Source of the DNA: Actinomycetota bacterium
Lineage (GTDB): Bacteria > Actinomycetota > Acidimicrobiia > Acidimicrobiales > CAIXPF01
NCBI GenBank assembly: GCA_016870475.1
Contig: VGBO01000003.1
Location: forward strand, 5,800-69,799
Direction of reading: 5' to 3'
Length of the DNA stretch: 64,000 bases
Under the pieces are notes generated by a model that was not told the DNA's origin, made no database searches, and was given only the letters and a program-made list of their open reading frames with translations. Below are positions 44,976 through 63,524 of this stretch, piece after piece. A program made the translations under genes and the position numbers. Position 1 is the stretch's first letter. Every line of letters starts with the position of its first letter.

Positions 44976-44976
44976 G

Positions 44977-46422: not shown

Positions 46423-46437
46423 TGGTCGATCCCGATG

Positions 46438-46466
46438 TTGTGACGCCCCCGGCGGTGGGGTAGGTT
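46438..46466 (+). promoter_or_regulatory. Putative promoter of the tRNA gene
   Basis: TTGTGA (46438-46443), a 17-nt spacer, then TAGGTT (46461-46466), ending 13 nt before tRNA position 1. Confidence 0.35.
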
Positions 46467-46479
46467 CTCGGTCTCACAC

Positions 46480-46556
<77 letters not shown>

Positions 46557-46569
46557 AGCAAAGAACCAG

Positions 46570-46609
46570 GTCAGAGGCCCTTTCCGGGAAGTCGGGAAGG
46601 GCCTCTGAC
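46570..46609 (+). terminator. Perfect 13-bp stem hairpin downstream of the tRNA
   Basis: GTCAGAGGCCCTT (46570-46582), a 14-nt loop, then AAGGGCCTCTGAC (46597-46609). There is no U-tract. Confidence 0.5.
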
Positions 46610-46697
46610 GTTCCGAAGGGGCCGGGATGGGAACAAAACGCGAACACGCCGTCGGAAACGTCATCCAGGGCCCCTGGAGCGCACCAGCGCCCACGGG

Positions 46698-46835
46698 AGG
46701 GACTGCCGCGCGAGGAGGGGACATCTGAGCTGGCTTGCCCGAGAGGGTGGCCTGGAAGGATGTTCCAATACCCAAGCCCTATCCGCAGGAGTTCCGCGAC
46801 GATGTCGTGAAGGTCGCTCGGCGTCGACCGGAGCG
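46698..46835 (+). mobile_element. Relic left end of an IS3-family-like element (copy X)
   Basis: Reads IPKPYPQEFRDDVVKVARRRPE from 46768, resembling the MPKPYPxEFRxDVV N-terminus of IS3-family OrfA, but with ATA in place of ATG and no continuation. The upstream about 70 nt are colinear with copy Y at 54739. Confidence 0.4.
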
Positions 46836-46932
46836 AGCATCGCTTCGAGTCGCTCGGCCTGCGCGGCCCACCGCCGGGAGGTCTCACCAGCCCAATCAGC
46901 ACTCGCCAAACCCGGCGCGCCATCGGACCCGG

Positions 46933-47196
46933 TCATCGGTGATCCCTGTGGTCGTGTTGCCGGTGGCTGCGGGTGGCGACGGGCCGCCCGGCGAGTTCGC
47001 CAACGGCGTGCAACACATGATCAGGCACCACGGCTCGCGGTGGGTCGACGTGCCCGGTCGCCGGGTCGATCACGATCGTCACGGCGCCGCGCCGGATGCG
47101 GACTCGCCCGTCGACGAGCAGCGTGAGAGTGTGTTCGACGCGACCTTGGCAGTCGAGCAACTCGGCGCCCGCAAGGTAACGATCGAGGTCACTCAT
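46933..47196 (-). CDS. Hypothetical protein with a His-rich C-terminus
   Basis: ORF track 87 aa ending SHRQHDHRDHR. Lies 129 nt downstream of palindrome copy A. No family recognised; it may be a relic. Confidence 0.3.
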   Translation of the reverse strand: MSDLDRYLAGAELLDCQGRVEHTLTLLVDGRVRIRRGAVTIVIDPATGHVDPPRAVVPDHVLHAVGELAGRPVATRSHRQHDHRDHR

Positions 47197-47324
47197 GTCG
47201 GCCGACCGCCTGATCGGGGGCGACGCACTCGGTCGCCCCGAACGAGATGTTCGATGCTTCCGGAGGTGGTCTCCAGGCGCGGCCCACGGTTGACATGCAA
47301 CGACATGGGCAGATTCTAGCTGCG

Positions 47325-47343
47325 AATCGGAACGATTCCTATC
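47325..47343. promoter_or_regulatory. Metal-cluster palindrome, copy A
   Basis: AATCGGAA CGA TTCCTATC. Confidence 0.4.
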
Positions 47344-47372
47344 GACCGGTCGGCGATCCGTGGAGCGTTTTG

Positions 47373-47828
47373 TCAGGAGGCGCAGTCGGCGCAGATCCCG
47401 ACGGCGTCGAGTCGGTGTCCGGTCGGCCGGAACCCGGTCTTACTGAGCGCCCTTTCGAGGGCCGCTGCGAGTGACCGCTCTGTGCTCGCCGGCACCACGA
47501 AATCGTCGATCGAACCGCACTCGATGCAGATGCTGTGGTGGTGGTGGCCGATGAGGTCCTCGTCAAGTTCGTAACGAGTGTGCTCATCGGTACCAATGAC
47601 CTTCTGCACGACACCGACAGCTTCGAGGTCGGCCATGTTCCGGTACATCGAGCTGAGTGTCAGCTTGGGTCGTTGCTCGACGAGTTCGGGCATGGTGGCC
47701 GGTCTGGACAGCCCAGCGAGCAGCCCGACGAGTTCCCGCCGTCCTTTGGTGAAGACGAGTCCGGCAGCGCGAACTCGTTGCTCCGCGAGCTGATGAAGTT
47801 CGCTCGTGTCGACGGCCATGCCGACCAT
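47373..47828 (-). CDS. Fur-family metalloregulator (Zur-like)
   Basis: ORF track 151 aa (alternative ATG at 47819). Winged-helix N-terminus, then HHHHSICIECG and CADC (a CxxC...CxxC structural site plus a His cluster). Confidence 0.85.
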   Translation of the reverse strand: MVGMAVDTSELHQLAEQRVRAAGLVFTKGRRELVGLLAGLSRPATMPELVEQRPKLTLSSMYRNMADLEAVGVVQKVIGTDEHTRYELDEDLIGHHHHSICIECGSIDDFVVPASTERSLAAALERALSKTGFRPTGHRLDAVGICADCAS

Positions 47829-47852
47829 GATACGCCGGTGTCAACGATTTTG

Positions 47853-47871
47853 AATCGGAACGAGTCCGATC
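47853..47871. promoter_or_regulatory. Metal-cluster palindrome, copy B
   Basis: AATCGGAA CGA GTCCGATC, 25 nt upstream of the Fur-family gene ATG at 47828. Confidence 0.45.
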
Positions 47872-48031
47872 TCACGCCCAGGTTGGTGGCATCGAAAGCG
47901 GTGACGGGACCAGGTTATGACGAGTTCGCCGAGGACCTGGTCGGGGTGATGCCGATCGATCGGCAGCGATGCTTGCCGCCCGAAACGTCACGTGGTCGTA
48001 CTGGCGATCGGATCCGCCCAGGGGCACCGGT

Positions 48032-48953
48032 TCAGACCGAGGCGGAGAATGCTGTCGCGGTGCACGTGATGGTGAAGCCGAGTCGCTCGTACAGCCCGAG
48101 AGCGGAGGTGTTCGCAGCATCGACGAACAACATGGCCCGCTCGATCCAGCGGTCACGAAGGGACCGCAGGCCGGCCTCGGCCAGGGAGCGACCCACACCG
48201 CGGCCGTGATGGGTTGGCCTCACCGCGAGGACGTAGATCTCGCCGATCGGCGAGCTTGGCGAGCGGTGAACCTTCGTCCAACAGAATCCGAGCATGGTGC
48301 CGCAGTCGTCGACGTGAAGCAGCAGCCCGGTCGGATCGAACCAATCGCTGGCGAAGCCAGCCTCGAGTGACGCGTGTGTTCAGTTGCCCTGGTCGGAATG
48401 ACGCTCGAAGGCCAGGTTGTTCACCTCGAGGAGTGCTGATTCGTCGACGCCTGCCACGAACTCGCGGGTGGGGAGCGTTGGGCGCGTCGGGGCGGCGCCG
48501 AGTTGCGTCTGCATCTGGTGCAACTGACGCGTTGGCAGCAAGCCATGTCGTTCGGCGGTCGCCCGATCGGTGGCGGTGGCCTCGTGACACCACCACCGCA
48601 CGCTCCGGGCGTTGCGCGCGGACCCACTCGATAGCAGCGCCACACGCGGTGTCGAGAATGCGGGCACGATCGGCGCGGCTGTGAGGATCGACTGCGATGT
48701 CGAGGGTCTAGGTGGTGGAAGGTTCCGCCGTGGGAGTCGCCTGTGCGTATGCCGCAGGGTTCAGCGATCGATCGAGAACGGCGAGCGCTCGTGCGATGAG
48801 CGTCCGATGAGTGGCTGCGCTCAACGCGTGGTCACTGAGCGGGGGTCGGCCATCGACGTCCTGGCATCGATCGAGCAGCTCGCGAACCGACGACCGGCTG
48901 ATCGCGTCGAATGCGTCGATGTCGATGACCGAGTACGGCGATGGCGCGGTCAT
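48032..48953 (-). pseudogene. mshD: Mycothiol synthase (MshD)-like GNAT acetyltransferase, disrupted
   Basis: Three collinear pieces. (1) 48953-48711 MTAPSPYSVIDIDAFDAISRSSVRELLDRCQDVDGRPPLSDH..., then an in-frame TAG at 48708. (2) LDIAVDPHSR..., with a frameshift near 48610-48650 into ...VRWWCHEATATDRATAERHGLLPTRQLHQMQ...LLEVNNLAFERHSDQGN, then a TGA at 48380. (3) THASLEAGFASDWFDPTGLLL...MLGFCWTKVH...GEIYVLAVRPTHHGRGVGRSL. Confidence 0.7.
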
Positions 48954-49768
48954 GTGCGTCGGCGCAAGGTCGTCACGGTGGCGACTGCGAAGCAGGCCAC
49001 GGTGACCAGCGCAATGGTCGGGCCGGGCGGGGTGGCGAGGTGATAGCTGGCGGTGAGACCAACGAGCGCGGAGAGCACTCCGATTGCGATCGCGACTGCG
49101 GTCATGGTCTCGATTCGCTGCGTCAGGAGGCGTGCGGTCGCCGCTGGGGTGATGAGCATCGCAACGCTCATCAGCAGCCCGACGGTGCCGAGACTGACGA
49201 CGACGGTGATGGAGATCAGCACGATCAGCACGAGCCGTAGCGGACCAACCGGGATGCCCACCTGACGGGCGTGGCCGGCGTCGAAGGTGACGTTGCGCAG
49301 ATCGGAGAACGTGAATGCAACGATGCACAAAGCCACGGCCGTCAACCCGCTGTTGACGATGATGTCGCTGCGTGTCGTGGTGACGATCTGGCCGAGCAGG
49401 AAGTGGGTGAGGTCGACGCCGATGCGGTCGTTGCGCGAGATCAGGATGAGGCCTGTTGCGAACATCAGCGTCTCGGCCACTCCGATGGCGCTGTCGTGTC
49501 CGAGTCGTCGCTGCCTGTCGAACAAGGCGACCAGGAGCCCCATGGTCACTCCCGCTGCGAGCGCGCCGACGGTGATGCTGATGCCGGTGAGGTAGGCGCC
49601 GGCGACACCAGCGAGGATTCCGTGGCTCATTGCGTCGCCGAGGTAGGCGAGGCGCCGCAGGACGACCCACACGCCGATGGTGGGGGCGAGCACGCCGATG
49701 AGTAGTGCGGTGATTGCCGCGTGCTGCATGAATTGGGTCCGGTAGGGGTCGGTGAACCAGTCGATCAT
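48950..49768 (-). CDS. Metal (Zn/Mn) ABC transporter permease, ZnuB/TroC-like
   Basis: ATG at 49768 overlaps the ATPase stop (ATGA). MIDWFTDPYRTQFMQHAAITALLIG...LAYLGDAMSHGILAGVAGAY. 272 aa, polytopic. Confidence 0.85.
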   Translation of the reverse strand: MIDWFTDPYRTQFMQHAAITALLIGVLAPTIGVWVVLRRLAYLGDAMSHGILAGVAGAYLTGISITVGALAAGVTMGLLVALFDRQRRLGHDSAIGVAETLMFATGLILISRNDRIGVDLTHFLLGQIVTTTRSDIIVNSGLTAVALCIVAFTFSDLRNVTFDAGHARQVGIPVGPLRLVLIVLISITVVVSLGTVGLLMSVAMLITPAATARLLTQRIETMTAVAIAIGVLSALVGLTASYHLATPPGPTIALVTVACFAVATVTTLRRRT

Positions 49769-50520
49769 GCGGCGCTGCTCGATCTGGGGGCCGTGCCGAA
49801 GGTGGCCTCGATGTGATCGGAGTCGAGTGCCTGCCCGGGTGGGCCGTCGCCCACGAGCCGCCGGTTGACGGCGAGGCAGCGACTGAACCGCCTGCGGGCC
49901 AGCGAAAGGTCGTGTGTGGCGACCAGGAGGGACGTGCCAGACGCAGCGAGGTCGGCGAACAGGTCGAACAGGGCTTCGGTGCGGGGTTCGTCGACACCGC
50001 TGAGGGCTTCGTCGAGCAGGATCAGGCGGGCTTCCTGGGCGAGTGCGCGAGCCAGGAAGGCGCGCTGCATCTGACCGCCTGACAGCGTCCCCAGTGGACG
50101 CCGGCGCAGATCGGCCAATCCGACGCGTTCGAGTGCGTCGTGCGCGGCTTGACGGTGCCGTTGGCCGGGTCGTTGCCCGAGGCGCAGGAACCTGCGTCGG
50201 CCGGCGAGTACGAGCTGGCCGACGGTGATCGGGAAGTCGACGTCGAGATCGCTGCGCTGGGGGATGTAGGCCGCTCCGAGCCGGTCGCGCTGATGGTGGC
50301 AGTGGTTGCCGCACAGCTCGACCGAGCCGTGGTGGTTGACGAGTCCGCTGATGGCTTTGAACAGCGTCGATTTACCGGCACCGTTGGGGCCGACGACGGC
50401 GATCAGCTCACCGACGTCCACCTGGAACGACACGTCAACGAGTGCCTCGGTGGCGGGCGGGTAGGTGACGCCGACCCCTGTGAGCTGCAGGATCGGATGG
50501 TCTCGAGGTGCGTCGTTCAT
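49765..50520 (-). CDS. Metal ABC transporter ATP-binding protein, ZnuC-like
   Basis: ATG at 50520 overlaps the binding-protein stop (ATGA). GPNGAGKSTL, LSGGQMQRAFLARAL and LILLDEALSGVD. Confidence 0.9.
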   Translation of the reverse strand: MNDAPRDHPILQLTGVGVTYPPATEALVDVSFQVDVGELIAVVGPNGAGKSTLFKAISGLVNHHGSVELCGNHCHHQRDRLGAAYIPQRSDLDVDFPITVGQLVLAGRRRFLRLGQRPGQRHRQAAHDALERVGLADLRRRPLGTLSGGQMQRAFLARALAQEARLILLDEALSGVDEPRTEALFDLFADLAASGTSLLVATHDLSLARRRFSRCLAVNRRLVGDGPPGQALDSDHIEATFGTAPRSSSAA

Positions 50521-51488
50521 CCGGCGCATTCGAGGCCGGCTGCGAGCCGGCGCAGGTTGTCACGCATGATCGATGCGTAGGTGTCGCCAGCGTCGAGCTG
50601 GTCCTGGGTCAGGCCCTCGATCGGGTCGAGCAGGTCGAGCTCCGCGCCGATCTCACGGGCGACCGTCTTCGCCAGGTCCGGCGGCGCGATCGACTCCAGG
50701 AAGATCGTGGTGACGCCCTCGGCTTTCGCCTCGGCGGCGATGGCTTTCAGGGTGCGCGGGTCAGGTTCGACATCGGGGGAGATGCCGGCGATCGGGATCT
50801 GGCGGAGGTCGTAGGTGTCGGCGAGGTACCCGAAGGCGCGATGACTGGTGACGATCACGCGTGAGCGGCACTTGGCCAGGCCGGCGCGGTACTCGCGGTC
50901 GAGCCCGCGCAGGTCGGTCAGATACGTCTCCGCGTTGGCGCGGTACGTGTCAGCGTTGTCCGGGTCGATCTCCGCGAGCGTGTTCGTGATGGCGTCCACC
51001 ATGGTGATCATCCGACTCGGGTCGAGCCACACGTGCGGGTCGACGTCGCCCTCCAGCACCTCACCGTCCACCTCGCCCTCAGTACCGGCGAGTTGCTCGT
51101 CGACCCCAAGGAGATCGACCGAGTCGAGGAGGTCGAGCCGGGTCACGCCTGCTGGCGAGTTGGCGAGTGCGGCCTCCACCTGCGGCTGGAACCCGCGGCC
51201 GAGATAGATCACCACGTCGGCCTCTTCGAAGGCGCCCATCTGAGCCGGCTGTAACTCCAAGTCGTGAGGTCCCTGCCCAGGCGGCGTCAGATCGGTCACC
51301 GAAACCAGGTCGCCGCCCACGCCCCTGGCCGCCTCGCCGAGGGGATAGAACGCGGCGAGCACGGTCAACGTCGGCTGCGAGCCACCCGTGTCGTCGCTAC
51401 CGCACGACGCAACAACCAGGCTCGCCGACACGGCGAACATGGTGAGGGAAGTGCGGATCGGCCGGATGCGGAGCGGAGAAGATCTCAT
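50517..51488 (-). CDS. Metal ABC transporter substrate-binding lipoprotein, ZnuA/TroA-like
   Basis: ORF track 323 aa. Lipobox VVASCG. Cluster A-I hallmarks GQGPHDLELQP, DPHVWLDP and VTSHRAFGYLA. The flexible loop is acidic rather than His-rich (EGEVDGEVLEGDVD). Confidence 0.85.
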   Translation of the reverse strand: MRSSPLRIRPIRTSLTMFAVSASLVVASCGSDDTGGSQPTLTVLAAFYPLGEAARGVGGDLVSVTDLTPPGQGPHDLELQPAQMGAFEEADVVIYLGRGFQPQVEAALANSPAGVTRLDLLDSVDLLGVDEQLAGTEGEVDGEVLEGDVDPHVWLDPSRMITMVDAITNTLAEIDPDNADTYRANAETYLTDLRGLDREYRAGLAKCRSRVIVTSHRAFGYLADTYDLRQIPIAGISPDVEPDPRTLKAIAAEAKAEGVTTIFLESIAPPDLAKTVAREIGAELDLLDPIEGLTQDQLDAGDTYASIMRDNLRRLAAGLECAG

Positions 51489-51504
51489 GGCCGCATCGTA
51501 TCAG

Positions 51505-51523
51505 AATAGGACAGATTCCGATT
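51505..51523. promoter_or_regulatory. Metal-cluster palindrome, copy C
   Basis: Reverse strand reads AATCGGAA TCT GTCCTATT. Lies 17 nt upstream of the binding-protein ATG (51488) and 111 nt upstream of the divergent ArsR-family gene. Confidence 0.45.
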
Positions 51524-51633
51524 TGATAGCCGATCCGTTCTGTGGGTCGCTGGGTGAGGCGGTGCACGGTCAGTTGCGCGGTTCGCACGAATCGACGCTG
51601 GACGATGACCCAACCGAGCAGACGCGTGCACAC

Positions 51634-51963
51634 ATGCGAATGTATGCATATGAGCGAGAGGTGACGTCGCCTCCCCCGGTCTCGATCGCTCGGGGTGCCG
51701 AGCTGCTCAAGACTCTGGGCAGCCCGGTTCGACTCGGGGTGATCTTGCAGCTGCAGGCTCACGGTGAGCAGTGCGTGCACGAGTTGGTGGCCTCACCCGA
51801 GGTGTCCCAGCCACTCATTTCGCAGCATCTTCGGGTGCTTCGCGACGCGCGGCTCATCGTCGGTCGGCGCGCTGGCAAAGAGATCCGCTACTCGATCGCA
51901 GACGATCACGTCTCACACATCGTTCACGATGTAATTCGACACGCCGAGGAGGAACTTCCATGA
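51634..51963 (+). CDS. ArsR/SmtB-family metalloregulator with an intact alpha5-type site
   Basis: ATG at 51634 inside track ORF 51388..51963. HTH LGSPVRLGVILQL...CVHELV...SQPLISQHLRVLRDARLI. C-terminal IADDHVSHIVHDVIRHAEEE gives D-x-H, then H 11 residues later, then x-x-E, as in SmtB/CzrA alpha5 Zn sites. Confidence 0.85.
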   Translation: MRMYAYEREVTSPPPVSIARGAELLKTLGSPVRLGVILQLQAHGEQCVHELVASPEVSQPLISQHLRVLRDARLIVGRRAGKEIRYSIADDHVSHIVHDVIRHAEEELP

Positions 51964-52109
51964 CCATGACACATACGGTCCACGACGACCATCAGCACGA
52001 GCACGGCCCCAACTGTGGCCATGCCGCGACCGAGCACGACGGCCACACGGACTACTTCCACGATGGTCACGTGCATCACCAGCACGACGGTCATTGGGAC
52101 GAGCACTGA
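51960..52109 (+). CDS. 49-aa histidine-rich metal-binding peptide
   Basis: ATG at 51960 overlaps the ArsR stop (ATGA) and follows GAGGAGGAA. MTMTHTVHDDHQHEHGPNCGHAATEHDGHTDYFHDGHVHHQHDGHWDEH has 15 His, 10 Asp/Glu and 1 Cys. Confidence 0.6.
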   Translation: MTMTHTVHDDHQHEHGPNCGHAATEHDGHTDYFHDGHVHHQHDGHWDEH

Positions 52110-52162
52110 CTTGTCGGTGCCACCGGCCAGCTGAAGGTGCACGCCCTCACTGGGAAATCGCC

Positions 52163-52570
52163 TCAGCTCCGCAGCCCTGACAACGCGACGCTGACACTCG
52201 GTGGGGTCGAGCCGTTCGAGAACACCCGTGCCGCGACCGCTGCCGGGGCCGGGGTGACGGCGTCGGCGGCGATCCAGTCGCAAAGCTGGTCGACGATCTC
52301 GTCGTCGAGCACACCACCGACCCAAACACGATCAGTCGAGATCCCGGCCGGTCGCACGATCACGACGTTCGACCGCTCGCACGCGCCGACGCACCCGACG
52401 ACCCGGCTTCGACCGCCCGCGGAGACGGCGGCAGCGTCGATGCGCTCGCGGATGGCCGCGTGGTCGACGCCGGGGTGTTTGCGGTCGGTACCGCAACAGC
52501 ACCCGTCGCACACCTGGACCCGAATGTTCAACCAGCGTTCTCGACGGGCTGCACCAGAGCGTGTCGTCAC
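52163..52570 (-). CDS. Cys-rich thioredoxin-like [2Fe-2S] ferredoxin-like protein
   Basis: GTG at 52570 overlaps the WD40 stop (GTGA). VQVCDGCCCGTDRKHPGVDH...VVGCVGACERSNVVIV. 135 aa. The longer 340-aa track ORF is a read-through. Confidence 0.65.
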   Translation of the reverse strand: MTTRSGAARRERWLNIRVQVCDGCCCGTDRKHPGVDHAAIRERIDAAAVSAGGRSRVVGCVGACERSNVVIVRPAGISTDRVWVGGVLDDEIVDQLCDWIAADAVTPAPAAVAARVFSNGSTPPSVSVALSGLRS

Positions 52571-53616
52571 CGCTGCTCCAGCGACGTCTCGTGAACAGGT
52601 CGACGTTCCAACGTGCCATCGGCGCGTCCGACAAGGAGCGAGCCGCCTGCGGGATGCCAGACGACCGTGGCGACGGCGACGTCTCCGTTGTGCACGTCGT
52701 CGGGTGTCAGCGGTCGCTTGACCGTGCGTGGCGACGGCCAGAGCGCGAGGCGGCCGTCGGCGCCCCCACTGCACAGTCGCGTGCCGGCGGGTTCCCAGGC
52801 GAGGCAGCTGATGTGCCTTTCGTGGGCGTTGCCGGTGGCTGGCCTCGTTCCCTTCGGGCCCTTGCCCGAGAAGTCCCACACGGTGAGCTCGTCGAGGCAC
52901 GCCGAGGCCATCCAGTGGCTGTCGTCGCGGAAAGCGAGGTGCTGGATCTTGGCGGGGTAGCCCGACATCGAGAGGTCGTCGCCCGACCACAGCCGCCACA
53001 GATGGATGCTCGAGTCCTGGAACCCGGCGCACGCCCACTTGCCATTCGGTGCCAGCACGAGCGCGAGTGGTGACCCCTTGAACTGGTGAGTTCGTGACGG
53101 CGTTCCGGCGTGCAGCCGTTCGGGGTCGTACCAGGTGATGCCCCCGTACGAGGTGACACCGATCCGTTTGCCATTCGTCGCCCACGCGACCGCGGTGATC
53201 GTCGACGAGACCGCCGGATACCGCTGGAGCCTTGCCCCGTCACGGTCGCAGAGAACGAGGTGCCGTCCGTCTGCCACCGCCAGGAGCGCACCGTCGGGCG
53301 ACCAAGCGACATGGGGGATCCATGCCGTCCCGAGATGCGCCGCCAGCTCGTGCCCTGTTCGGTCGTAGACGCGGATCACGCCGTCCTGGCCGCCGATCGC
53401 GAGTCGCGAACCGTCAGGCGACCACGCGCCGCACAGCACACCCATCGGGTGCTCCGCCAACTTGCAGACCACCAAACCATCGACCGTGACGATCGCCGCA
53501 TCGCCTCCGAGCGAACCGGCGGCGAGCAGATCTCCGTGCGGAGAGATAGTCAGTGCTGTGACGTAGTCGCCGAGCTGCATCTCCCATTCGACGGGGCCGA
53601 TCATCGGACCAGACAC
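52567..53616 (-). CDS. WD40 repeat beta-propeller protein
   Basis: ORF track 349 aa. An alternative ATG at 53604 forms ATGA with the upstream stop. Seven to eight repeats of the type xAWSPDGxxLAxGGxDGxIRVYD. Confidence 0.8.
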
Positions 53617-54590
53617 TCCCGGAAACTGCGCTCCAACGCAGCACGTTCGAGGTTGCGGCCGATGAACACCAGCTTGTTGCTGCGCGCCTCATCTGGCCGC
53701 CATGGTCGGTCGGCTTGACCGTCGAGGAGCATGTGCACGCCCTGGAACACATATCGCTCGTTCATGCCGGCAATCGACAAGATGCCCTTGGAGCGAAAGA
53801 TGTCCGTGCCCTGCTCCGCGAGAAGTCGTCCGAGCCACTTGTTCAGCCGATCGCCGTCCAGATCCCCGTCGGCCTGGATGCCGACCGAAGTGACCGTGGC
53901 GTCGTGCTGGTGTTCGGCATCAGGATCGAGGAACGCCGGGTCGTCGATCAACACACGATCGAGATCGAATGCGCCCACGTCGAGGATCAGGTCGAGATCC
54001 ACCTGACCGTGGCTCGTGTGGATGAGCGGCGCCAATGTGTTGATTTCGCAGATCCGGCGTTCGACCTCGGCGAGCTGAGGGGCGTCGACGAGATCGACCT
54101 TGTTGATCACCACTCGGTCAGCGAACGCCAACTGCTCCACGGCTTCGTTCTCGACGCCGTCGGCCTTGATCTCATCGAGGTGCAGCAGGAGGTGCTTCGC
54201 ATCGACCACCGTCACGATCGCATCGAGCCGTAGCTGTGCCGATACCTCAGGATCGACGAAGAAGGTCTGCGCCACCGGGGCGGGATCGGCGAGTCCGGTC
54301 GTTTCGATCACGATCTGATCGAAACGGTCCTTGCGCTTCATGAGATTGCCGAGGATTCGGATCAGGTCGCCGCGAACGGTGCAGCAGATGCAGCCGTTGT
54401 TCATCTCGAAGATCTCTTCCTCGGCCTCGAGCACGAGCGCGTCGTCGATGCCGACCTCACCGAACTCGTTCTCGATCACGGCGATCCGCTTGCCGTGCTG
54501 CGCAGTGAGGATGTGGTTCAGCAGCGTCGTCTTGCCCGCCCCGAGGAACCCGGTGAGCACGGTGACAGGTACCTTCGAGTCGATTGCCAT
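53601..54590 (-). CDS. COG0523-family GTPase metallochaperone (CobW/YciC/ZigA-like)
   Basis: ATG at 54590 inside track ORF 53601..54671. Walker [13 protein letters not shown], metal motif [14 protein letters not shown], and a C-terminal CobW_C-like domain. Confidence 0.9.
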
Positions 54591-54595
54591 GACGA

Positions 54596-54614
54596 AAGCA
54601 TAACGGGTCCTATT
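54596..54614. promoter_or_regulatory. Metal-cluster palindrome, copy D (weaker left half)
   Basis: AAGCATAA CGG GTCCTATT, 6 nt upstream of the COG0523 ATG. The right half is identical to that of copy C. Confidence 0.35.
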
Positions 54615-54738
54615 CCGAGAGGACACGGTGATGATCCTCGGAGGGGCTCGCGAGACTCGGCCTCGTGCCACCCCAATGGCTTGTGTCGGTGACGGTCAAA
54701 GACTGCGCGGTTCTGCCGGTCGAAAAGTGCGCGGTGTA

Positions 54739-54870
54739 GGGCCTGCCGCGGGTGGGGGTGACATCTGATCTGTGGTGCTGGGGAGTGCCGCGGGAGAGGA
54801 TGTGTTCCATGTCGAAGGTCGTTCGGATGGAGCGCTCCGCAGGCCGAGTTGGTAGGCCGGGCGGCGTTCC
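54739..54870 (+). mobile_element. Relic IS-like end (copy Y), colinear with copy X
   Basis: Shares the blocks CTGCCGCG, GACATCTGA, AGGATGT and TTCCA with 46698-46767. Block spacings are identical (17 and 37 nt). It is followed by a short ORF, MSKVVRMERS..., at the position of the OrfA-like start in copy X. Confidence 0.35.
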
Positions 54871-54990
54871 ATGATCTGCCGGGGACCGACGCCCAGAGGC
54901 GTCGAACGGGGCAGCTGGCGGGGCCTCCGGGTCAGCGTGGCTGGTCGGCGACTAGCGCGTGGTGATGGAGTGGTCGCTCGCCTGCGGGCG

Positions 54991-55464
54991 TCAGCGAGGC
55001 GGGTTGTCGGACATCGTCACCGGGACGTCGAGCGTTCGGCCCGAGGAGAACCGGAGGGTGGCGGTGAAGGTGTCGCCGCTCTCGAGCGGGCCCGCAAGGT
55101 CGACCAGCATGATGTGGTTGCCGCCGGGTCGGAACTTGACGGTTGCGCCGGCTTCGATGACGACTTCGGCGACCTGCTCCATGGTGACGGTGCCACTGCC
55201 GACCGCGCCGTGTTGGTGGCCGTCGCCCCCGGCAGCATCGGATGTGTGGAGCTCGGCACGTCCGGCGATGTCGGTTGGCACGTCGGCAGCGACGAGCACG
55301 TCGCGGACGTCGCTACTGAGCTCGAGGTAGATCACCCCGTTCGTGGCCCCGGCTGGTGTCGGGCGGGCCCAGGCTCCCGACGCACCGAAGGCGATCTGGT
55401 CGCCGCCGCAACCAGCAAGCATCCAGCACGCGACGAACAGAGCGGCGGCGCGGTGCCTCCTCAC
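54991..55464 (-). CDS. Copper chaperone PCu(A)C lipoprotein
   Basis: GTG at 55464 overlaps the upstream stop (GTGA). Lipobox MLAGCGG. AELH...M...GNHIML fits the H(M)x10Mx21HxM motif. Confidence 0.8.
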   Translation of the reverse strand: MRRHRAAALFVACWMLAGCGGDQIAFGASGAWARPTPAGATNGVIYLELSSDVRDVLVAADVPTDIAGRAELHTSDAAGGDGHQHGAVGSGTVTMEQVAEVVIEAGATVKFRPGGNHIMLVDLAGPLESGDTFTATLRFSSGRTLDVPVTMSDNPPR

Positions 55465-56993
55465 GCCTGGCCGAACGTGCGGCGCAGCGGTGAAACGCTC
55501 TGGATGACCAACTTGTCGAATGCAACGATGACCAGCGCGACTGCTGCCCACAGCGGGTAGACGATGCCGAGCAGGACCGCGGCGCCGACGAGCTTCCATG
55601 TCAGGCGTGGGTCGGCGGGTCGGCGTGGGAGGCCGAGGGTGCCGGGCCGGCGACGCCTCCAGAACATGACGAAGGCGCTGATCACCGACCAGATTGACAG
55701 GACACACAGCAGTGTCATGAAAATGCGGCTGACCAATCCGAGCTGGGTGCCCATGTGGGTGCTCACGAGGTAGTCCATGCCGACGCTGATGGTACCGACT
55801 CCGTAGATCCGCTGTTCGTCGAGCGTGGCCCCGGAGAACTGGTCAACGAAGACGTTGCGTGCCTCGCCGGTCTGACGTGGCCACGAGTTGTAGAGCGTGA
55901 AACTGCCATAGACGGGGTTGCCGGCTTCGTCGGTCTCGTTGGCCGGGAACGAGATCGTGTAGCCGGGCTTCATTCCCTCGTCCTCGGCGATGCGTACCGC
56001 ACTGTCGAGGCTCATCGGGGACGGCATCGTGCCATCGACAGCGACGGGGGCATAGCTCGCAGGGATCACGAAGTCGCCGGTCGCCCACGGGATCTGGTTG
56101 CCGAACCGGTCGAGATCGCCACGGGTCGCGCTGGTGCTCGCCGTGTTCTCAGCTGCACTCCCCGGCGTGACCCGTTCGGCGAGAGAACTGAACCCGTCCG
56201 CCCAGTACGACGACCAAGCCATCCCGGACACGATCGTGAGCACCATGACCGGGATCATGACGAACCCGGTCAGACCGTGCAGGTCACGCCAACGTGCCCG
56301 TCCCCCGGCTGCCCACCTGACGCCGATCAACCGCCGTGCACCCTTGGAACCCTGGCTCTGACTCGACCGCCGCGGCCAAAACAGGTACAGCCCTGAACCG
56401 ACCAGCACCAGAGTCCAGACGCCGAGGACTTCCAGGACCAGATCACCCACGACGTACTCACGCATCACCGGTCCGTCGCTCCACAACGCCGCGACCGCAG
56501 GCAGCGTGACGGTGAGCGAGTCGTTGTTCAGGAAGCCGTGCAGACGATTCGACAGCCCGATCACTGCACCGCCAGGCTTCGAGACCCCGAGCACCTCAGC
56601 GGTGTAGGGGTCGACGAAGACGTGGAGGCCGCTGGCGCTGCCGTCATCGACGAAGAACCGTGTGGTCGCCTCCCGATCCGCTGGCGGGGTCAGATCGGAC
56701 ACGGTGCCGTCGGGGTAGGCGGCTGCAACAGCCTCTGCCTGCTCGTCGAACGACACGTACTCGGTCGAGCGCGATTCGGTCGAGCGGATGTCACCCTCGG
56801 TCGCTTGTTGGATCGGATCGGTGTACAGGATGACCGGACCTGTGACCGCCATCAGCAAGATGAACGGCATGGCGAACATGCCCGAGTAGAAGTGCACCCG
56901 CCACAACGAACGCCACTGACGACTCGACGAATCCCCGGACGACGCTGTCGGCGAAGTCGCCTCATCCCTGTTGGTCACGTTCGGCTCGCTCAC
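55461..56993 (-). CDS. PepSY-domain / PepSY-associated TM helix membrane protein
   Basis: GTG at 56993 is preceded by GAGGAG, inside the 653-aa track ORF. WRSLWRVHFYSGMFAMPFILLMAVTG, WRDLHGLTGFVMIPVMV and C-terminal TM helices. Confidence 0.75.
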   Translation of the reverse strand: MSEPNVTNRDEATSPTASSGDSSSRQWRSLWRVHFYSGMFAMPFILLMAVTGPVILYTDPIQQATEGDIRSTESRSTEYVSFDEQAEAVAAAYPDGTVSDLTPPADREATTRFFVDDGSASGLHVFVDPYTAEVLGVSKPGGAVIGLSNRLHGFLNNDSLTVTLPAVAALWSDGPVMREYVVGDLVLEVLGVWTLVLVGSGLYLFWPRRSSQSQGSKGARRLIGVRWAAGGRARWRDLHGLTGFVMIPVMVLTIVSGMAWSSYWADGFSSLAERVTPGSAAENTASTSATRGDLDRFGNQIPWATGDFVIPASYAPVAVDGTMPSPMSLDSAVRIAEDEGMKPGYTISFPANETDEAGNPVYGSFTLYNSWPRQTGEARNVFVDQFSGATLDEQRIYGVGTISVGMDYLVSTHMGTQLGLVSRIFMTLLCVLSIWSVISAFVMFWRRRRPGTLGLPRRPADPRLTWKLVGAAVLLGIVYPLWAAVALVIVAFDKLVIQSVSPLRRTFGQA

Positions 56994-57530
56994 GGTGTTC
57001 GCTCTCCTCGGTGGGGTTGGCGGGTTCGCAGGGCCCTTGCACCTGACGGGTAGACCGGCGTGCGGTTCCAAAAGTTCCCTCGTGCTCCCGGCGTTGAGCT
57101 TCGGTGGCAACGACGCAATCCCGTCGAACTGTCGACGGGGCCCGTGGTCGACTTGCGCAGCGCCGATCCCCGGGGCCTCGGTGAGGTCCCAGGTCTGGGC
57201 GAACTCGTCGGTGGTGTAGGTCATGTCGACGGCAGCCTCGAAGGACAGTCGTCCGGGTGGGCAGCAGTCATCGACGCGTTCCGTCGTCGCCGGGTTGTCG
57301 AGGCTGGCATCCACGGCATCGCGCACCGCTACCCAGGCGCCCACCAGGTCGGTCTCGACAGATAGAAGGTCGGTGTCTCGATGCCCGCACGCTTCGAGCA
57401 GGGCCTCGGCCCTGGGATCCACTCAACGAGATGCCGCACGACGCTGCAAGACGTCTCGCGCCGCCCATCCTGGACACGGTGACAGCGGTCGACCTGATGA
57501 GTCAGGACGTTCGCCGTCACTTGCACGTAT
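56994..57530 (-). pseudogene. DinB/MDMPI-like (mycothiol-dependent maleylpyruvate isomerase N-terminal domain family) relic
   Basis: SPCPGWAARDVL at about 57450-57485, an in-frame TGA at 57423-57425, then VDPRAEALLEACGH...TYTTDEFAQTWDLTEAPG. There is no own stop, so it runs in frame into the PepSY gene. Confidence 0.35.
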
Positions 57531-57555
57531 TGCGTTTGTGGGATAGGGCCGACCT

Positions 57556-57990
57556 ATGTCGAGTGCTGTGGAGATCAGGCCCGGCTCCGTCGAGGCGCGG
57601 GAGTTGGCGGTGATCGAGCGGGCGCTTGCTCGTGATGGTGAGGTGGCGGCCCGGTTGGTGGATGCGCGCGGTGACACCGTGGATGTGCCAGCTGAGCTGG
57701 TGGGGGTGCTGTTGGCGATCGTGCAGCACTTGAAGGCTGGGCACGGAGTGACGGTGGCGTCTGTGCAGGCCGAGCTGACGACGGTCGAGGCTGCCGAGCT
57801 GTTGAACGTGAGCCGGCCTCATCGGATCAAGCTCCTCGAGGGTGGTGCGCTGCCGTTCCGGATGGTGGGAACACATCGCCGGCTGCGGCTCGTGGATGTA
57901 CTCGCCTACCGCGACCGCCAGGACGCTGCTGCTCGTGAGGCGCTCGGCGAGTTGACCCGCCAAGCCGAAGATCTCGGCCTGTACGACTGA
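57556..57990 (+). CDS. Helix-turn-helix (excisionase-type) DNA-binding protein, probable type II antitoxin
   Basis: ORF track 144 aa. TTVEAAELLNVSRPHRIKLLEGGALPFRMVGTHRRLRLVDVLAY. Followed after 7 nt by a PIN-like ORF. Confidence 0.75.
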   Translation: MSSAVEIRPGSVEARELAVIERALARDGEVAARLVDARGDTVDVPAELVGVLLAIVQHLKAGHGVTVASVQAELTTVEAAELLNVSRPHRIKLLEGGALPFRMVGTHRRLRLVDVLAYRDRQDAAAREALGELTRQAEDLGLYD

Positions 57991-57997
57991 ACCTGCG

Positions 57998-58294
57998 GTG
58001 GTGTCTGGCCGTGTCGTGGTCGTCGACGCGAATGTTTTCTACTCAATCGAGTTGACCGACCTGCTCGTGACGTTCGCAGCACACCGGCTTGTCCGCCGGC
58101 ACTGGTCATCGACGATCCTCGACGAAGTCGGCCGCAACCTCGCGAAGCGTGCCGACCTCTCCCCGGTCGCAATCGCCCACCGGATCGGGCGGATGGACGC
58201 CACGCCGGATGGAACCGGTTCGTCGACGCCGTTCACATCCCCCTGTTCGGTGCATGGACGGCCGGCACGATGGTCGCGTGCATCCCGCATCTGA
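57998..58294 (+). pseudogene. PIN-domain toxin, truncated
   Basis: VVVVDANVFYSIELTDLLVTFAAHRLVRRHWSSTILDEVGRNL is a PIN N-terminus. Family-like sequence stops around codon 70 (about 58200) and the frame then drifts into unrelated sequence. Confidence 0.5.
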
Positions 58295-58881
58295 GCGGGT
58301 ACGCGTCACCCACGATGGAGCGCCTCGGCGTCGTCGAGCTCGCCGCGCTGGGCACCCTTGCGGTGCGGTACGCAGTGGAGAACGTTGCACGGGTCTCCGT
58401 GGCGGAGCGGCTCGGCGCGGTCGAGGTCGGCGAGCTGCCTGAGCCGTCGGCGGTCCAGCGGCACCTCTCGGCGTTGGTGCGATCGGCGTTGTTCGTCTTC
58501 GTCGCGGCCGTGTTCATCGAGGCGAGATGGGCGCTCTGGCTGGGTGAGGCGATGTTCCTCGTCCCGAAGCTCGTCGAACAGTTCGCGGAACGGTTCCCGA
58601 ACTTCGGCGAGGCGTACCGATGGGTGCCCCGGAACCACTTCCGGATCGTTGCCATGTTCTTCGTGATGCTGTGGTGGGGAATCGCGCTGGCAGATGCGGT
58701 CGAGGGTCCGGACGGCGTCGCTCGCGGTTTCGTATTGATGAGCGTGCCGGGATTGCTGCTCGGTGGGCTCGACTGGTTCGTGCGTGACGGATCTCGGTGG
58801 CCGTCGAATGCGCTGAGTCGGCTCCTCGGTGTGGCGCCGTTCCTGTTCGGTGTCGCGCTCGTCCGGGGCCTGGTGCTCTGA
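58270..58881 (+). CDS. Hypothetical membrane protein (about 4 TM helices)
   Basis: ORF track 203 aa (alternative ATG at 58315). Hydrophobic helices ALFVFVAAVFIEARWALWL, IVAMFFVMLWWGIALA, FVLMSVPGLLLGGL and LLGVAPFLFGVALV. Confidence 0.5.
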   Translation: MVACIPHLSGYASPTMERLGVVELAALGTLAVRYAVENVARVSVAERLGAVEVGELPEPSAVQRHLSALVRSALFVFVAAVFIEARWALWLGEAMFLVPKLVEQFAERFPNFGEAYRWVPRNHFRIVAMFFVMLWWGIALADAVEGPDGVARGFVLMSVPGLLLGGLDWFVRDGSRWPSNALSRLLGVAPFLFGVALVRGLVL

Positions 58882-58915
58882 CCCGCCGTCCCAGAGGTTG
58901 CCGGCACGAACCGGG

Positions 58916-59170
58916 TCACTCCTCCGGGTGCCGCCGGTCCGCATCGGACCAGTTGCACGCCGTGCATCGCACCGTGGGGTCGTAGCCGGGGGAGATGACA
59001 CAACCACCGAGGACGACGTCGCCTCGCTCGTAGGCATCCGCCAGCTCGCTACCCGGATAGCCGAAGACGACCGGCACCACGCTCCGTCGACCGCATTCGG
59101 GACAGTCGGCCCGGTCGCCGATCTCTCTCGGCCATCGCTCGTCGCGTTGGTCGTTGCTGTTCTCGCGCAT
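58916..59170 (-). CDS. Small zinc-ribbon-like protein, hypothetical
   Basis: ATG at 59170 is preceded by GGAGG. MRENSNDQRDERWPREIGDRADCPECGRRS...VRCTACNWSD carries CxxC...CxxC. Confidence 0.5.
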   Translation of the reverse strand: MRENSNDQRDERWPREIGDRADCPECGRRSVVPVVFGYPGSELADAYERGDVVLGGCVISPGYDPTVRCTACNWSDADRRHPEE

Positions 59171-59358
59171 TGTCGCACCTCCACGCACGACCCTACGGGC
59201 GACCCGGGACACGGTTCGCGGGCGCCGATCGTGGGTATGCCGCGCGCGTGCCACCCCTTCGACGGTCGGATCGGCGCAGCGTGCGCGCCCCTGCAGAGCG
59301 CTCCCGGCGGACGTCGGCACCCTGGCACATCCACGTGCCGACGAGGCGACACCCGGGT

Positions 59359-59553
59359 GTGCGGTCGGTCGCCGAGCTCACCCCCGGTGAGCGCGCTGCG
59401 GACTGGCTGCGCAACCGCATGGGGTCGTGGGGCTTCGTGTTCTGGGCGCTCGTCTTCCTCGCCGGCTGGATGGCGGGGGCGATCCGGCTCATCGCAGCTC
59501 AGTCGACGAACCGCATGGCGAGTGATCCACCGACGGCGAGCAGGAGCACATAA
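59359..59553 (+). pseudogene. DUF1003-family membrane protein stub
   Basis: LTPGERAADWLRNRMGSWGFVFWALVFLAGWM matches the family N-terminus. Similarity ends near 59470-59480, and the frame runs into the 3' end of the convergent antiporter gene. Confidence 0.45.
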
Positions 59554-60641
59554 GCGGCAGCGAACCCACCGAGGCGAGGCTCGATCCCGGCGGCGGTGCC
59601 GAGTCCGGCGATCACCACCGAGAACTCGCCTCGTGGGATGAGCGACGCTGCGGCGCGTCGTCGGCCACGGATCCCGATGCCGGCGCGACGTGCTGCCCAC
59701 CAGCCGGTGCCGGCCTTCGATGCGGCACCGACGACGGCGAGAGCGAGCGCGGGAAGGACCACCGGCGGGAGCTCGCCGATGTCGACCTGCATCCCGAAGA
59801 AGATGAAGAACAACCCGCCGAACACGTCCCGGATCGGTGTGAGCAGCGCCCGACCTCGCTCGGCCATCTGCCCGGACAGCATCACGCCGATCAGGAACGC
59901 GCCGACGGCCGCCGAGACGCGGACCCGGTCGGCGAGACCTGCGGCGAGGAGCGTGACCCCGAGGACCGTGAGCAGCAGGAGTTCCGGCGACGGTGAGTCG
60001 AGGAGTCGGCTCACGAGGGTGCCGTGGCGGAACGACACGAGGAGGGCGACAGCGACGACGCCGAGAGCGATGGCGACGGAGACGCCGGCGTCGGTGAGCG
60101 ATGAGCCGACGAGCAGCACGCCGGCGACCGGGAGGAACACCGCCATCACGATGTCCTCGATCACGAGGACCGAGAGCACCGTGGAGGTCTCGCGGTTGCC
60201 GAACCGGTCGAGGTCGCCGAGCAACCTCGCGACGATGCCGGACGATGTGATGTAGGTGACGCCGCCGAGGAGGAACGCGGCGACGGGGTCCCATCCGAGG
60301 AGGAACCCTGCAGCGAGGCCCGGCGTGAAGTTCGCGACCACATCGAGCGCACCGGCCGACCAGTCACGCCGGATTCCCGTGCGCAACTCCTCCGGCGTGT
60401 ACTCGAGCCCGAGAAGGAGGAGCAGGAGCACCACACCGAGGTCCGCACCGATACGGATGAAGTCCGTGCTCCCCTCGAGCCCGATCGGGCTCCCCTCACC
60501 GAGCAGCAGACCCGCGACGAGGTAGAGGGGGATCGACGGCAGGCCGACGCGCGCGGCGAGTCGGCCGCTGACGGCGAGCACGAGCAGCACGGCACCGAGT
60601 TCGACGAGGACGGCCCCGGCCGTCGATGCGGCGAGGATCAC
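59499..60641 (-). CDS. Cation:proton antiporter (CPA2, KhtU/Kef-like)
   Basis: GTG at 60641 inside track ORF 59499..60848. RVGLPSIPLYLVAGLLLGEGSP, LLLLLLGLEYTPEEL; polytopic. Confidence 0.85.
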   Translation of the reverse strand: MILAASTAGAVLVELGAVLLVLAVSGRLAARVGLPSIPLYLVAGLLLGEGSPIGLEGSTDFIRIGADLGVVLLLLLLGLEYTPEELRTGIRRDWSAGALDVVANFTPGLAAGFLLGWDPVAAFLLGGVTYITSSGIVARLLGDLDRFGNRETSTVLSVLVIEDIVMAVFLPVAGVLLVGSSLTDAGVSVAIALGVVAVALLVSFRHGTLVSRLLDSPSPELLLLTVLGVTLLAAGLADRVRVSAAVGAFLIGVMLSGQMAERGRALLTPIRDVFGGLFFIFFGMQVDIGELPPVVLPALALAVVGAASKAGTGWWAARRAGIGIRGRRRAAASLIPRGEFSVVIAGLGTAAGIEPRLGGFAAAYVLLLAVGGSLAMRFVD

Positions 60642-60654
60642 GACGCGCCGACCG

Positions 60655-61134
60655 TCAACCGTGCAGCAGTTGCTGAGCGGCGAGCACGCCGTCGTGGGAG
60701 CCGACGACGAGCGCAACGTCGCCCGCCTCGAGCACGAACTCCGGTCCCGGTCCGGGGATCGAGGCGTCACCACGGAGGACGGCGACGACGGATGCGCCGG
60801 TTGCGGTGCGGATGCGACCGTCCCCGATGGTTCGTCCGGCGAGCCCACGCCCGGCTTCGAGCGGCACCCATTCGATCGACAGGCCCTCGACCTCGTACAT
60901 GAGATCTGCGATCCGTTCGGTCACCTTCGTGCCGCCGAGGAGTTCGACGAGAGTTGCGGTCTCCTCGCCCGACATCATGACGGTGTCGCGGCAGGAATCC
61001 GGGTCACGCTTGTCGTACAGGACGAGCTCGCGACGCCCGTCACGACGAACGATGACACCGAGACGGTCGCCGGCTGCGCTCGTGAACTCGTAACGGACCC
61101 CGACTCCGGGCAGAAGGGTCTCGAACAGCTCCAC
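60655..61134 (-). CDS. Cation:proton antiporter regulatory subunit (TrkA-C domain, KhtT-like)
   Basis: ORF track 159 aa. LPGVGVRYEFTSAAGDRLGVIVRRDGRRELVLYD plus C-terminal TrkA-C (LAGRTIGDGRIRTATGASVVAVLRG). Sits 13 nt upstream of the antiporter gene. Confidence 0.85.
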   Translation of the reverse strand: MELFETLLPGVGVRYEFTSAAGDRLGVIVRRDGRRELVLYDKRDPDSCRDTVMMSGEETATLVELLGGTKVTERIADLMYEVEGLSIEWVPLEAGRGLAGRTIGDGRIRTATGASVVAVLRGDASIPGPGPEFVLEAGDVALVVGSHDGVLAAQQLLHG

Positions 61135-61168
61135 GGCACGTCACCCTACCGTCCCGGTGCGAGGTCGC

Positions 61169-61954: not shown

Positions 61955-62048
61955 GAGATGATCCTCCCACGATCGGCGGCGGGGCGAGATCTACCCGCTG
62001 CCGAACCTCAGTAGGCCTCAGCTCGCAGGTCGTCGACCGGACCGACGC

Positions 62049-63504: not shown

Positions 63505-63524
63505 GTCGAGCTCGCCGGCCCGGG

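Follow-up and report, generated by a model that had tools for sequence, protein, structure and literature searches.

The 64,000-nucleotide window analysed here, a stretch of contig VGBO01000003.1 from an Acidimicrobiales bacterium, contains a single tRNA gene according to ARAGORN. This gene, an initiator tRNA-Met(CAT), hereafter tRNA-fMet, is followed by about 13 kb of DNA (46557-59498) that a preliminary description had presented as one old, decaying accessory element. The region is more probably a flexible genomic island that was built piecemeal, by addition, at a tRNA hotspot, and that carries a cassette of zinc-related genes. The gene map combines open reading frames (ORFs) and Pfam and NCBIfam matches with the genes called on public contigs that are nearly identical to the window; loci of relatives are designated by L numbers. 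The tRNA gene and the segment adjoining it are organized as follows (aa, amino acids; nt, nucleotides; IS, insertion sequence):

46480-46556, forward strand: initiator tRNA-Met(CAT), called by ARAGORN and by Rfam (tRNA, 64 bits), with synteny in L020, L021, L028 and L029.
46557-46697, forward strand: tRNA-proximal segment with a terminator hairpin (46570-46609), also present in the sister population.
46698-46870 (end approximate), forward strand: IS3-family left-end relic 1, with a 35-nt repeat (46698-46732) and an OrfA N-terminal remnant.
46933-47196, reverse strand: small conserved protein of 87 aa, assigned to no family, intact here and degenerate in L001, called as a gene in L044-L051.
47373-47828, reverse strand: intact Fur-family regulator, probable Zur (Pfam FUR, E=2e-15; 89% aa identity to the L001 ortholog, full length).
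48032-48953, reverse strand: mshD (mycothiol synthase) pseudogene, from a codon-level alignment to the intact L001 ortholog.
48950-51440, reverse strand: metal ABC importer operon, all intact (Pfam ZnuA, ABC_tran, ABC-3).
48950-49768, reverse strand: importer permease (best NCBIfam match AztB, below cut-off).
49765-50520, reverse strand: importer ATPase (AztA ranks third in NCBIfam).
50517-51440 (ORF open to 51488), reverse strand: importer substrate-binding protein (best NCBIfam match AztC, below cut-off).
51634-51963 (start of the gene caller at 51487), forward strand: ArsR/SmtB metalloregulator (Pfam HTH_5; NF033788, 81 bits against a cut-off of 55).
51960-52109, forward strand: gene of a 49-aa His-rich peptide, overlapping arsR, conserved in L001 and L004.
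52163-52570, reverse strand: Cys-rich thioredoxin-like [2Fe-2S] ferredoxin-like protein.
52567-53604, reverse strand: WD40 beta-propeller protein.
53601-54590, reverse strand: CobW-type G3E GTPase.
54738-54935, forward strand: IS3-like left-end relic 2, with a 35-nt repeat (54738-54772), then an ATG and decayed codons.

About 10 of the 13 kb, comprising some 15 genes, are intact and mostly devoted to metal homeostasis. These genes went unmentioned in the preliminary description, whose picture of decaying DNA holds for some dead genes and relics and fails for the bulk of the region: decay is limited to mshD, the IS stubs, a PIN toxin gene and possibly a DUF1003 gene. The Fur-family regulator is, judging by its context, probably Zur. 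For the importer, the ZnuA/B/C models of NCBIfam rank lower than the Azt models, and its proteins share 86-91% aa identity with those of L001, a locus from another Acidimicrobiales species. An exact-sequence look-up of the 323-aa ZnuA ORF gave no match, probably owing to a different start chosen by the gene caller; the same look-up matched for KhtT and Fur. The cobW-WD40 pair is kept in 18 of 19 related loci. When the window and L001 are compared, the intact genes of the zinc module show far stronger conservation at codon positions 1 and 2 than at position 3 (for cobW, identities of 0.97, 0.98 and 0.82 at the three positions), and for this reason the cassette is regarded as maintained and not decaying. 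The two distal fragments of mshD lack such an asymmetry in the same comparison.

The three lesions that had been claimed for the mshD-like gene were confirmed by the alignment to L001: a TGG to TAG change at 48708-48710, a 2-bp deletion between 48620 and 48619, and a TGG to TGA change at 48380-48382. With two stop codons and a frameshift, the gene of the window does not encode a full-length MshD as modelled by TIGR03448 (two GNAT domains), while the L001 ortholog passes this model with 213 bits against a cut-off of 163. All three lesions, together with the gene arrangement, recur in five JGI metagenomes and three Logan assemblies, eight independent assemblies in all, with 99.93-99.98% identity to the window. 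Assembly errors were considered as an origin of the lesions and rejected on these grounds; the lesions are real and fixed in the window population. It had also been remarked that some lesions are consistent with G-to-A changes, which fits both nonsense changes of mshD as well as the ATA that stands against ATG between the two IS relics; three such events are too few for inferring a mutational bias. The start of mshD overlaps the stop codon of the permease gene (ATGA), so that mshD would be co-transcribed with the zinc importer. If the genome contains no second mshD, mycothiol synthesis would be lost, and the fixed pseudogene raises the question of whether the population continues to produce mycothiol.

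The intact genes of the cassette appear to be connected by a common operator. A 17-bp palindrome, ATCGGAAnnnTTCCGAT, which has the 7-1-7 architecture of Fur-family operators, gave three matches with at most two mismatches, against 0.13 expected, and none of 100 shuffles reached three. All three matches fall in promoters of the zinc module:

47326-47342: candidate Zur box ATCGGAACGATTCCTAT, in front of the 87-aa gene.
47854-47870: candidate Zur box ATCGGAACGAGTCCGAT, upstream of the Fur-family gene itself, at a position also occupied in L001 and L002.
51506-51522: candidate Zur box ATAGGACAGATTCCGAT, in the promoter region from which the binding-protein gene and arsR diverge.

Immediately before cobW (~54600-54620) stands a further copy, TCGGAATAGGACCCG, which is more degenerate. 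In relatives, the palindrome is found before fur, cobW, znuA and a paralog of ribosomal protein L31, at L001 15559 and 19314, L002 4318, L003 8995 and 11307, L004 13426, and L006 690; it should be noted that the L31 label, like the labels LysR, L33 and MNT/HEPN used for relatives, comes from the reading of translations and not from profile searches. Genes of these four kinds are classic Zur targets in other bacteria. The palindrome is richer in GC than the usual box of the Fur family, and its half-site TCGGAAT would represent a GC-richer variant when compared with the mycobacterial box, which is of the TGAAAAT type. Taken together, the palindrome has the look of the operator that Zur would recognise in this Acidimicrobiales lineage, and the zinc part is predicted to be one regulatory unit sharing the operator motif. 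Two of the three AT-rich strings that the preliminary description had quoted as signs of drift (at 47846 and 51499) overlap these candidate operators.

Several small features of the cassette deserve mention in their own right. The 87-aa protein belongs to a family of ~70-90 aa with the motif LxDCxGRxxHTLTLLxDGxVRVR, which gave no match in Pfam or NCBIfam. In at least six relatives, members of the family lie inside zinc clusters, adjoining WD40, cobW or znuA (for instance, L002 6998-7150, L003 11145-11294, L005 11115-11261, L006 2804-2962 and L007 3038-3211). The 49-aa His-rich peptide (MTMTHTVHDDHQHEHGPNCGH...HDGHWDEH), likewise without a family, is always located 3' of an ArsR/SmtB gene (L001 11504-11781, L001 16893-17378 and L004 11901-12203) and is internally duplicated in a second module of L001; it could be a small metal-buffering protein. 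The arsR gene of the first L001 module lacks ~170 nt that are found in the window (51629-51798). In five remoter Acidimicrobiales genomes, the cobW-WD40 pair begins ~35-150 nt downstream of a tRNA-Leu gene (L009 8852-8937, L011 8782-8868, L013 8828-8914, L015 8747-8834 and L016 7671-7757), and the pair may therefore be tRNA-associated in further lineages.

The site in which the cassette lies is variable among relatives, and its left border is the tRNA gene, whose C1xC72 mismatch and three G-C pairs in the anticodon stem, read from the sequence, are initiator features. A UPF0182 gene is found upstream of tRNA-fMet in every relative examined (L020, L021, L028 and L029). The copy of the window (39970-43008) has a 99%-identical homolog on L021 and L022, and these two conspecific contigs, from a sister population, are 98.6% identical to the window over 30039-46697 and then share no DNA with it, the breakpoint being located 141 nt past the tRNA. 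Their cargo consists of glyoxalase, LuxR-type, beta-lactamase and sulfatase genes, and this replacement DNA has a GC content of 0.671 vs 0.707 in its own flank. Three remoter genomes keep the order of UPF0182 and then tRNA-fMet, each with a different cargo: L020 (85% identity in UPF0182) has a gene for a 1427-aa protein after the tRNA; L028 (65%) has a Gp49/HTH toxin-antitoxin pair enclosed by a repeat of the tRNA 3' half (44 nt, in direct orientation) located 1.3 kb downstream; and L029 (59%) has a tyrosine integrase gene ~4 kb downstream of the tRNA. The tRNA-fMet gene is thus a conserved integration hotspot, and the connection between accessory DNA and this site, proposed in the preliminary description, is supported by the break of L021/L022, by the different cargoes and by the scars of L001 treated below. 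The synteny expected from that description, in which the tRNA would be directly followed by khtT/khtU in relatives, was not observed: no khtT/khtU lies within 6-10 kb of the tRNA in L020, L021, L028 or L029, and their candidacy as its native neighbour is unsupported in these four. On the other side of the tRNA, an SBBP-repeat beta-propeller gene (45100-46422) is present in the window and in L021/L022 and absent in L020, where no such gene stands between an FMO-like gene and the tRNA (L020 14997-15063); the 5' side of the tRNA is therefore likewise not fully stable.

Towards the right, relatives divide the region further. At this site, 46698-54935 is specific to the window population. The next segment, 54936-58155, is common to L038, L039 and L043 (94-98% identity); in L038, a 95.7% relative, PCuAC is present with unrelated genes in the position of cobW, and homology to the window begins at 54936. 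The following segment, 58156-59498, is common to L039 and missing in L043, and L039 continues through 59498 to 64000 with 97.5% identity. The region is, consequently, a mosaic of at least three segments that have differing distributions among relatives. Short-read assemblies break at 46529, 54396 and 56834, as expected where variants or repeats meet.

These distributions bear directly on the preliminary explanation, namely that a single integrative element of ~13 kb (46557-59498) lost its integrase and attachment (att) repeats long ago and decays as a whole. The GC content is indeed lowered over the whole span, pseudogenes or relics are scattered at 46.7, 48-49, 54.8, 58.0 and 59.3 kb, and no integrase or att repeat was found, all of which would suit such an element. 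However, the three sub-blocks are found separately in relatives; in one genome pair the zinc module is far less diverged than PCuAC/PepSY, so that separate arrivals are indicated; and the ~15 intact genes include zinc-module genes that are under purifying selection with respect to L001 and share an operator motif. Nor does any comparison support an edge at 59498 with a return to core DNA at 59499, since L039 runs through this position. A single decaying element is for these reasons an unlikely explanation.

In L001, the module is found with unchanged gene content and order all the way from the 87-aa gene to cobW, at 88-90% nt identity and with an intact mshD. The module of L001 is bracketed by two direct copies of the tRNA-fMet 3' half (16733-16637 and 8783-8685), each of which spans from the anticodon loop to the CCA end and is followed by the same terminator hairpin that stands after the tRNA of the window. 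A third tRNA-half scar adjoins the zinc cluster that L002 has of its own. The possibility that the halves of L001 are odd whole tRNAs was rejected, given that ARAGORN found no whole tRNA in L001 and that their 5' parts and the acceptor 3' strand fail to pair. Past the inner scar, PCuAC and PepSY of L001 are preceded by an extra segment of 2.5 kb; read from its translations, this segment looks as if it encoded LysR, a small protein and a siderophore-interacting-like protein. Past the outer scar lies a second zinc-type block (16734-21044), with an ArsR gene and its His-rich peptide, a methyltransferase-like ORF, a second Fur-family gene, L33/L31 paralogs and a second cobW-like gene, which suggests a tandem accretion of zinc cassettes.

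The divergence of the module from L001 is discordant with that of its neighbours. Third-codon-position identity between the window and L001 amounts to 0.77-0.93 in the module genes, 0.67 in PCuAC and 0.64 in PepSY, and the overall nt identity of PCuAC and PepSY_TM is just 76-78%; UPF0182 gives a third-position value of 0.65 between the window and the equally distant L020. Because of this higher third-position identity, the module is considered to have been exchanged much more recently than PCuAC and PepSY diverged. The same data bear on the proposal that the block is ancestral core DNA, deleted in the relatives without it, and that its low GC merely reflects gene content (AT-rich regulatory sites and His codons). 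The cobW-WD40 pair and zinc genes are widespread in Acidimicrobiales, and the module genes look functional, as would be expected of core genes. Nevertheless, the sister population shows no deletion at the site but other DNA, the L001 module lies in another context, between tRNA-half scars, the synonymous divergence does not agree with that of neighbouring genes, and GC is lowered at third codon positions (GC3) and not merely between genes, all of which makes an ancestral block very improbable.

With regard to composition, the preliminary observation that the DNA becomes AT-richer after tRNA-fMet was reproduced in a windowed analysis. The GC content is 0.663 in 46557-59498, vs 0.700 in 1-46479 and 0.688 in 59499-64000 (the window overall, ~70%). 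The five GC-poorest 13-kb windows of the 64 kb begin at 45751-46751, and leftward of these none falls below 0.686. In a crude ORF set, GC3 is ~0.78 for ORFs inside the region vs 0.85 outside (Mann-Whitney p=4e-4). The compositional shift after the tRNA is genuine but modest.

Both ends of the cassette bear the IS-like relics that had been noticed earlier. A 35-nt sequence is repeated directly (83% identity) at 46698-46732 and 54738-54772, and past it the similarity is looser for about 50 nt. At the position of the start codon, about 35-40 nt after each copy, relic 1 has ATA (46768-46770) and relic 2 has ATG. In 159 plasmid records from actinobacteria, annotated IS3-family transposases have N-termini that match the peptide of relic 1 (tblastn; 68% identity over 28 aa, E=1e-4); Pfam and NCBIfam gave no match, and only the tblastn comparison with plasmids revealed the relic. 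The 35-nt repeat is not a known RNA, because an Rfam scan of 46000-60000 (E<=1) gave only the tRNA and two sub-threshold chance matches, and no inverted copy of it was found. The IS3 features of the window amount to ~25-30 OrfA codons plus the 35-nt shared left end. It is important that both stubs sit exactly at synteny breakpoints (46698 and 54738-54935): relic 1 starts exactly at the end of the L021/L022 homology and relic 2 ends where the L038 homology begins. An IS-mediated reworking of the cassette ends is therefore indicated in this lineage.

The coincidence of the two relics with breakpoints also invites a stronger proposal, in which a composite IS3 transposon, or an IS-mediated rearrangement, placed the module itself between two direct IS3 copies that were later truncated. 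Against this, each copy consists of ~200 nt of the same left end, with no right end, transposase or target duplication; relic 2 is too decayed for an independent identification; and the same module in L001 is surrounded by tRNA-half repeats and by no IS relic. Placement by IS3 is rather unlikely, and it is compatible, as a later step, with an island accreted at the tRNA hotspot.

The tRNA-proximal DNA provides further hints of the traffic at the site. From the T-stem to 46697, the window and L021 differ at 12 positions in ~166 nt, in comparison with 1 in ~130 nt upstream. Compensatory pairs distinguish the T-stems of tRNAs or scars among genomes, including the window and the sister population: GCAGG/CCTGC is found in the window, L001_b and L020, ACAGG/CCTGT in L021 and L002, and AGAGG/CCTCT in L001_a and L028. 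The cluster of single-nucleotide polymorphisms (SNPs) that begins at the T-stem fits with incoming elements having replaced the tRNA 3' half. A more speculative extension, which we regard as possible but doubtful, is that the 8-kb cassette is a self-contained regulon, comprising repressor and operators, importer, chaperone GTPase and a sensor of excess zinc, that circulates among freshwater Acidimicrobiales with no integrase of its own, being mobilised in trans through its own tRNA-fMet 3' half and terminator, with each arrival replacing the 3' half of the essential initiator tRNA; the compensatory T-stem alleles would then result from these replacements. If this were true, zinc economy would be swappable at the strain level in lakes, and the initiator tRNA would be partly shaped by island traffic.

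Some observations weigh against an island assembled at the tRNA around a zinc regulon. In agreement with the preliminary description, no integrase, recombinase or transposase domain was detected in the called proteins or in six-frame Pfam scans of three unassigned stretches. A second tRNA 3' half or right attachment site (attR) is likewise absent from the window, since a blastn-short search (word size 7) with the tRNA plus downstream DNA as query gave a longest other match of 14 nt, which is attributable to chance; the spacer 54619-54936 has no similarity to the tRNA. A target-site duplication was not found in the window either, and integration at the tRNA is for these reasons deduced only from relatives. 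No empty site, in which tRNA-fMet abuts PCuAC or khtU, occurs among the genomes examined, and no comparison places a right end on the flexible region, as L039 crosses 59498 at normal identity. L021, on the tRNA side, and L039, on the PepSY side, come from the same metagenome but could not be joined. The excess of SNPs from the T-stem to 46697 may be normal intergenic divergence, and the IS origin of relic 2, proposed solely for its likeness to relic 1, is putative. As to the regulator, no curated model separates Zur from Fur/PerR, and its NCBIfam matches are all far under the cut-off. Stronger constraint could account for part of the module's likeness to L001; this explanation is countered by the mshD pseudogene, which is also 91-94% identical to L001.

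With these points in mind, an island built piecemeal at the tRNA hotspot, having a degraded periphery and a functional zinc cassette, is still the likely reading, and for the zinc response, the mechanism of integration and the order of events we infer the following. The largest piece (46698-54935, ~8.2 kb) would be a horizontally exchanged zinc-economy cassette. The scars in L001 suggest how it most probably came in, namely through site-specific recombination within the tRNA gene, in its 3' half. An IS3-family element would later have reworked the ends of the cassette in this genome, leaving two left-end stubs, and the integrase and the distal tRNA-half repeat would since have been lost. On the model of standard Zur regulons, a shortage of zinc would cause the repressor to leave its boxes, with the consequent expression of the uptake and chaperone genes, and the pair formed by ArsR and the His-rich peptide may handle excess zinc. 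Past the cassette, the region continues with a copper-related pair (PCuAC and PepSY_TM) and a toxin-antitoxin remnant.

This kind of element, the tRNA-linked flexible island, is already well described. In classical tRNA-linked islands and prophages, tyrosine recombinases promote a crossover in the anticodon loop or 3' of it. The region resembles these islands in its location on the 3' side of a tRNA gene and in its deviant composition; besides, L029 has an integrase at the same tRNA, and the scars of relatives run from the anticodon stem-loop to the CCA end. It differs from them in that neither the window nor L001 has an integrase, an attR or an excisionase function. Of the features of a strict integrative island, location, composition and variability are present, whereas the integrase and the distal repeat were not found in the window. 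A likeness to IS3-family elements and composite transposons also exists, as an OrfA N-terminus is 68% identical and two similar left ends bracket a cargo; unlike those elements, the ends here are ~200-nt stubs with no transposase, right inverted repeat or target duplication.

The closest parallels within the class Acidimicrobiia are the flexible genomic island fGI1 and the "tRNA-direct repeat" islands of Ca. Actinomarinales, which are characterized by tRNA hotspots, partial-tRNA repeats and exchange between genera (Lopez-Perez et al. 2020, PMC7771536). As in those islands, the same location holds differing content in genomes of >98% identity, tRNA genes are the targets, ABC-transporter cargo lies beside tRNA fragments, and cassettes are exchanged between distant lineages (PMC7771536). 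The differences are the target, which is here an initiator tRNA-Met in a 70%-GC host related to Ilumatobacter; the cargo, a metal regulon here and envelope glycosylation there; and the structure of the window, which has no distal repeat and contains IS3 stubs at the ends of the cassette. Partial-tRNA repeats that delimit cassettes are present in L001, L002 and L028, and not in the window itself. From the regulatory point of view, Mycobacterium avium ssp. paratuberculosis has a zinc-responsive island (LSP14/LSP15) controlled by FurB/Zur (Eckelt et al. 2014, PMC4298942), which is, like the present one, actinobacterial and lineage-specific, and concentrates genes with Zur/FurB boxes for zinc starvation. 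That island has ~90 kb and its zinc response is experimental (PMC4298942), while the one described here has ~8 kb, its own regulator and a predicted regulation. Zur-regulated island genes are also described in Vibrio cholerae.

For annotation, these results mean that the block is not junk and is probably the zinc-uptake regulon of the organism together with a copper pair. From an ecological point of view, two co-existing lake populations that are 98.6% identical differ in their cargo at one tRNA hotspot, which suggests that metal acquisition is flexible at the strain level. As regards method, AT-rich strings and scattered pseudogenes near a tRNA can flag a real island even though most of it is healthy.

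The right-hand part of the region, beyond the zinc cassette, contains the following features:

54991-55422, reverse strand: PCuAC copper chaperone.
55461-56993, reverse strand: PepSY_TM membrane protein (GTG start at 56993 inferred from L001; ORF open to 57422).
57556-57990, forward strand: intact HTH_17/excisionase-family, antitoxin-like gene.
57998-58294, forward strand: PIN toxin stub, matching positions 1-59 of the 177-position PIN model.
58270-58881, forward strand: membrane-like ORF of 203 aa, assigned to no family.
58916-59320, reverse strand: Cys-rich ORF, assigned to no family.
59170-59553, forward strand: possible DUF1003 N-terminal fragment (profile positions 1-24 of 103, E=0.028, weak).
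Right of these small ORFs: a cation/proton antiporter and its KhtT-like partner.

Beyond the PepSY start that was deduced from L001, the ORF remains open over 143 further upstream codons, and public gene calls take in most of this extension (627-aa product). The upstream stretch, 56997-57555, lacks conservation in L001, and a frameshift separates the window from L043, a 94% relative, in it; it is probably non-coding or a dead remnant. A DinB-like gene with an in-frame TGA had been proposed in the region; six-frame Pfam scans of the unassigned stretches gave no such gene, and the best candidate, read through its stop at 56997-57555 on the reverse strand, was discarded, having no Pfam or NCBIfam match at E<=10, the DinB_2 and MDMPI_N profiles included. 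This stretch contains a string, PGWAARDVL, followed by an in-frame TGA, which may be what was then taken for DinB and is without statistical support. The truncation of the PIN gene was confirmed, while that of DUF1003 agrees with the weak match given above. The HTH_17 protein, paired with the PIN remnant, looks like an antitoxin. L043 diverges at 58155, inside PIN, and its own PIN copy is damaged differently. The small ORFs of 58270-59553 are common to the sister population (L039) and not to L043; the protein of the 203-aa ORF is only 84% identical to that of L039, and a hypervariable patch within this ORF (58350-58404) is unalignable to L039, with 97-98% identity on either side. Toxin-antitoxin-like pairs of nucleotidyltransferase/HEPN-type and XRE-type are located next to PCuAC and PIN in L038 (1268-2724) and L043 (7486-8343), and toxin-antitoxin modules seem to mark most junctions of the region.

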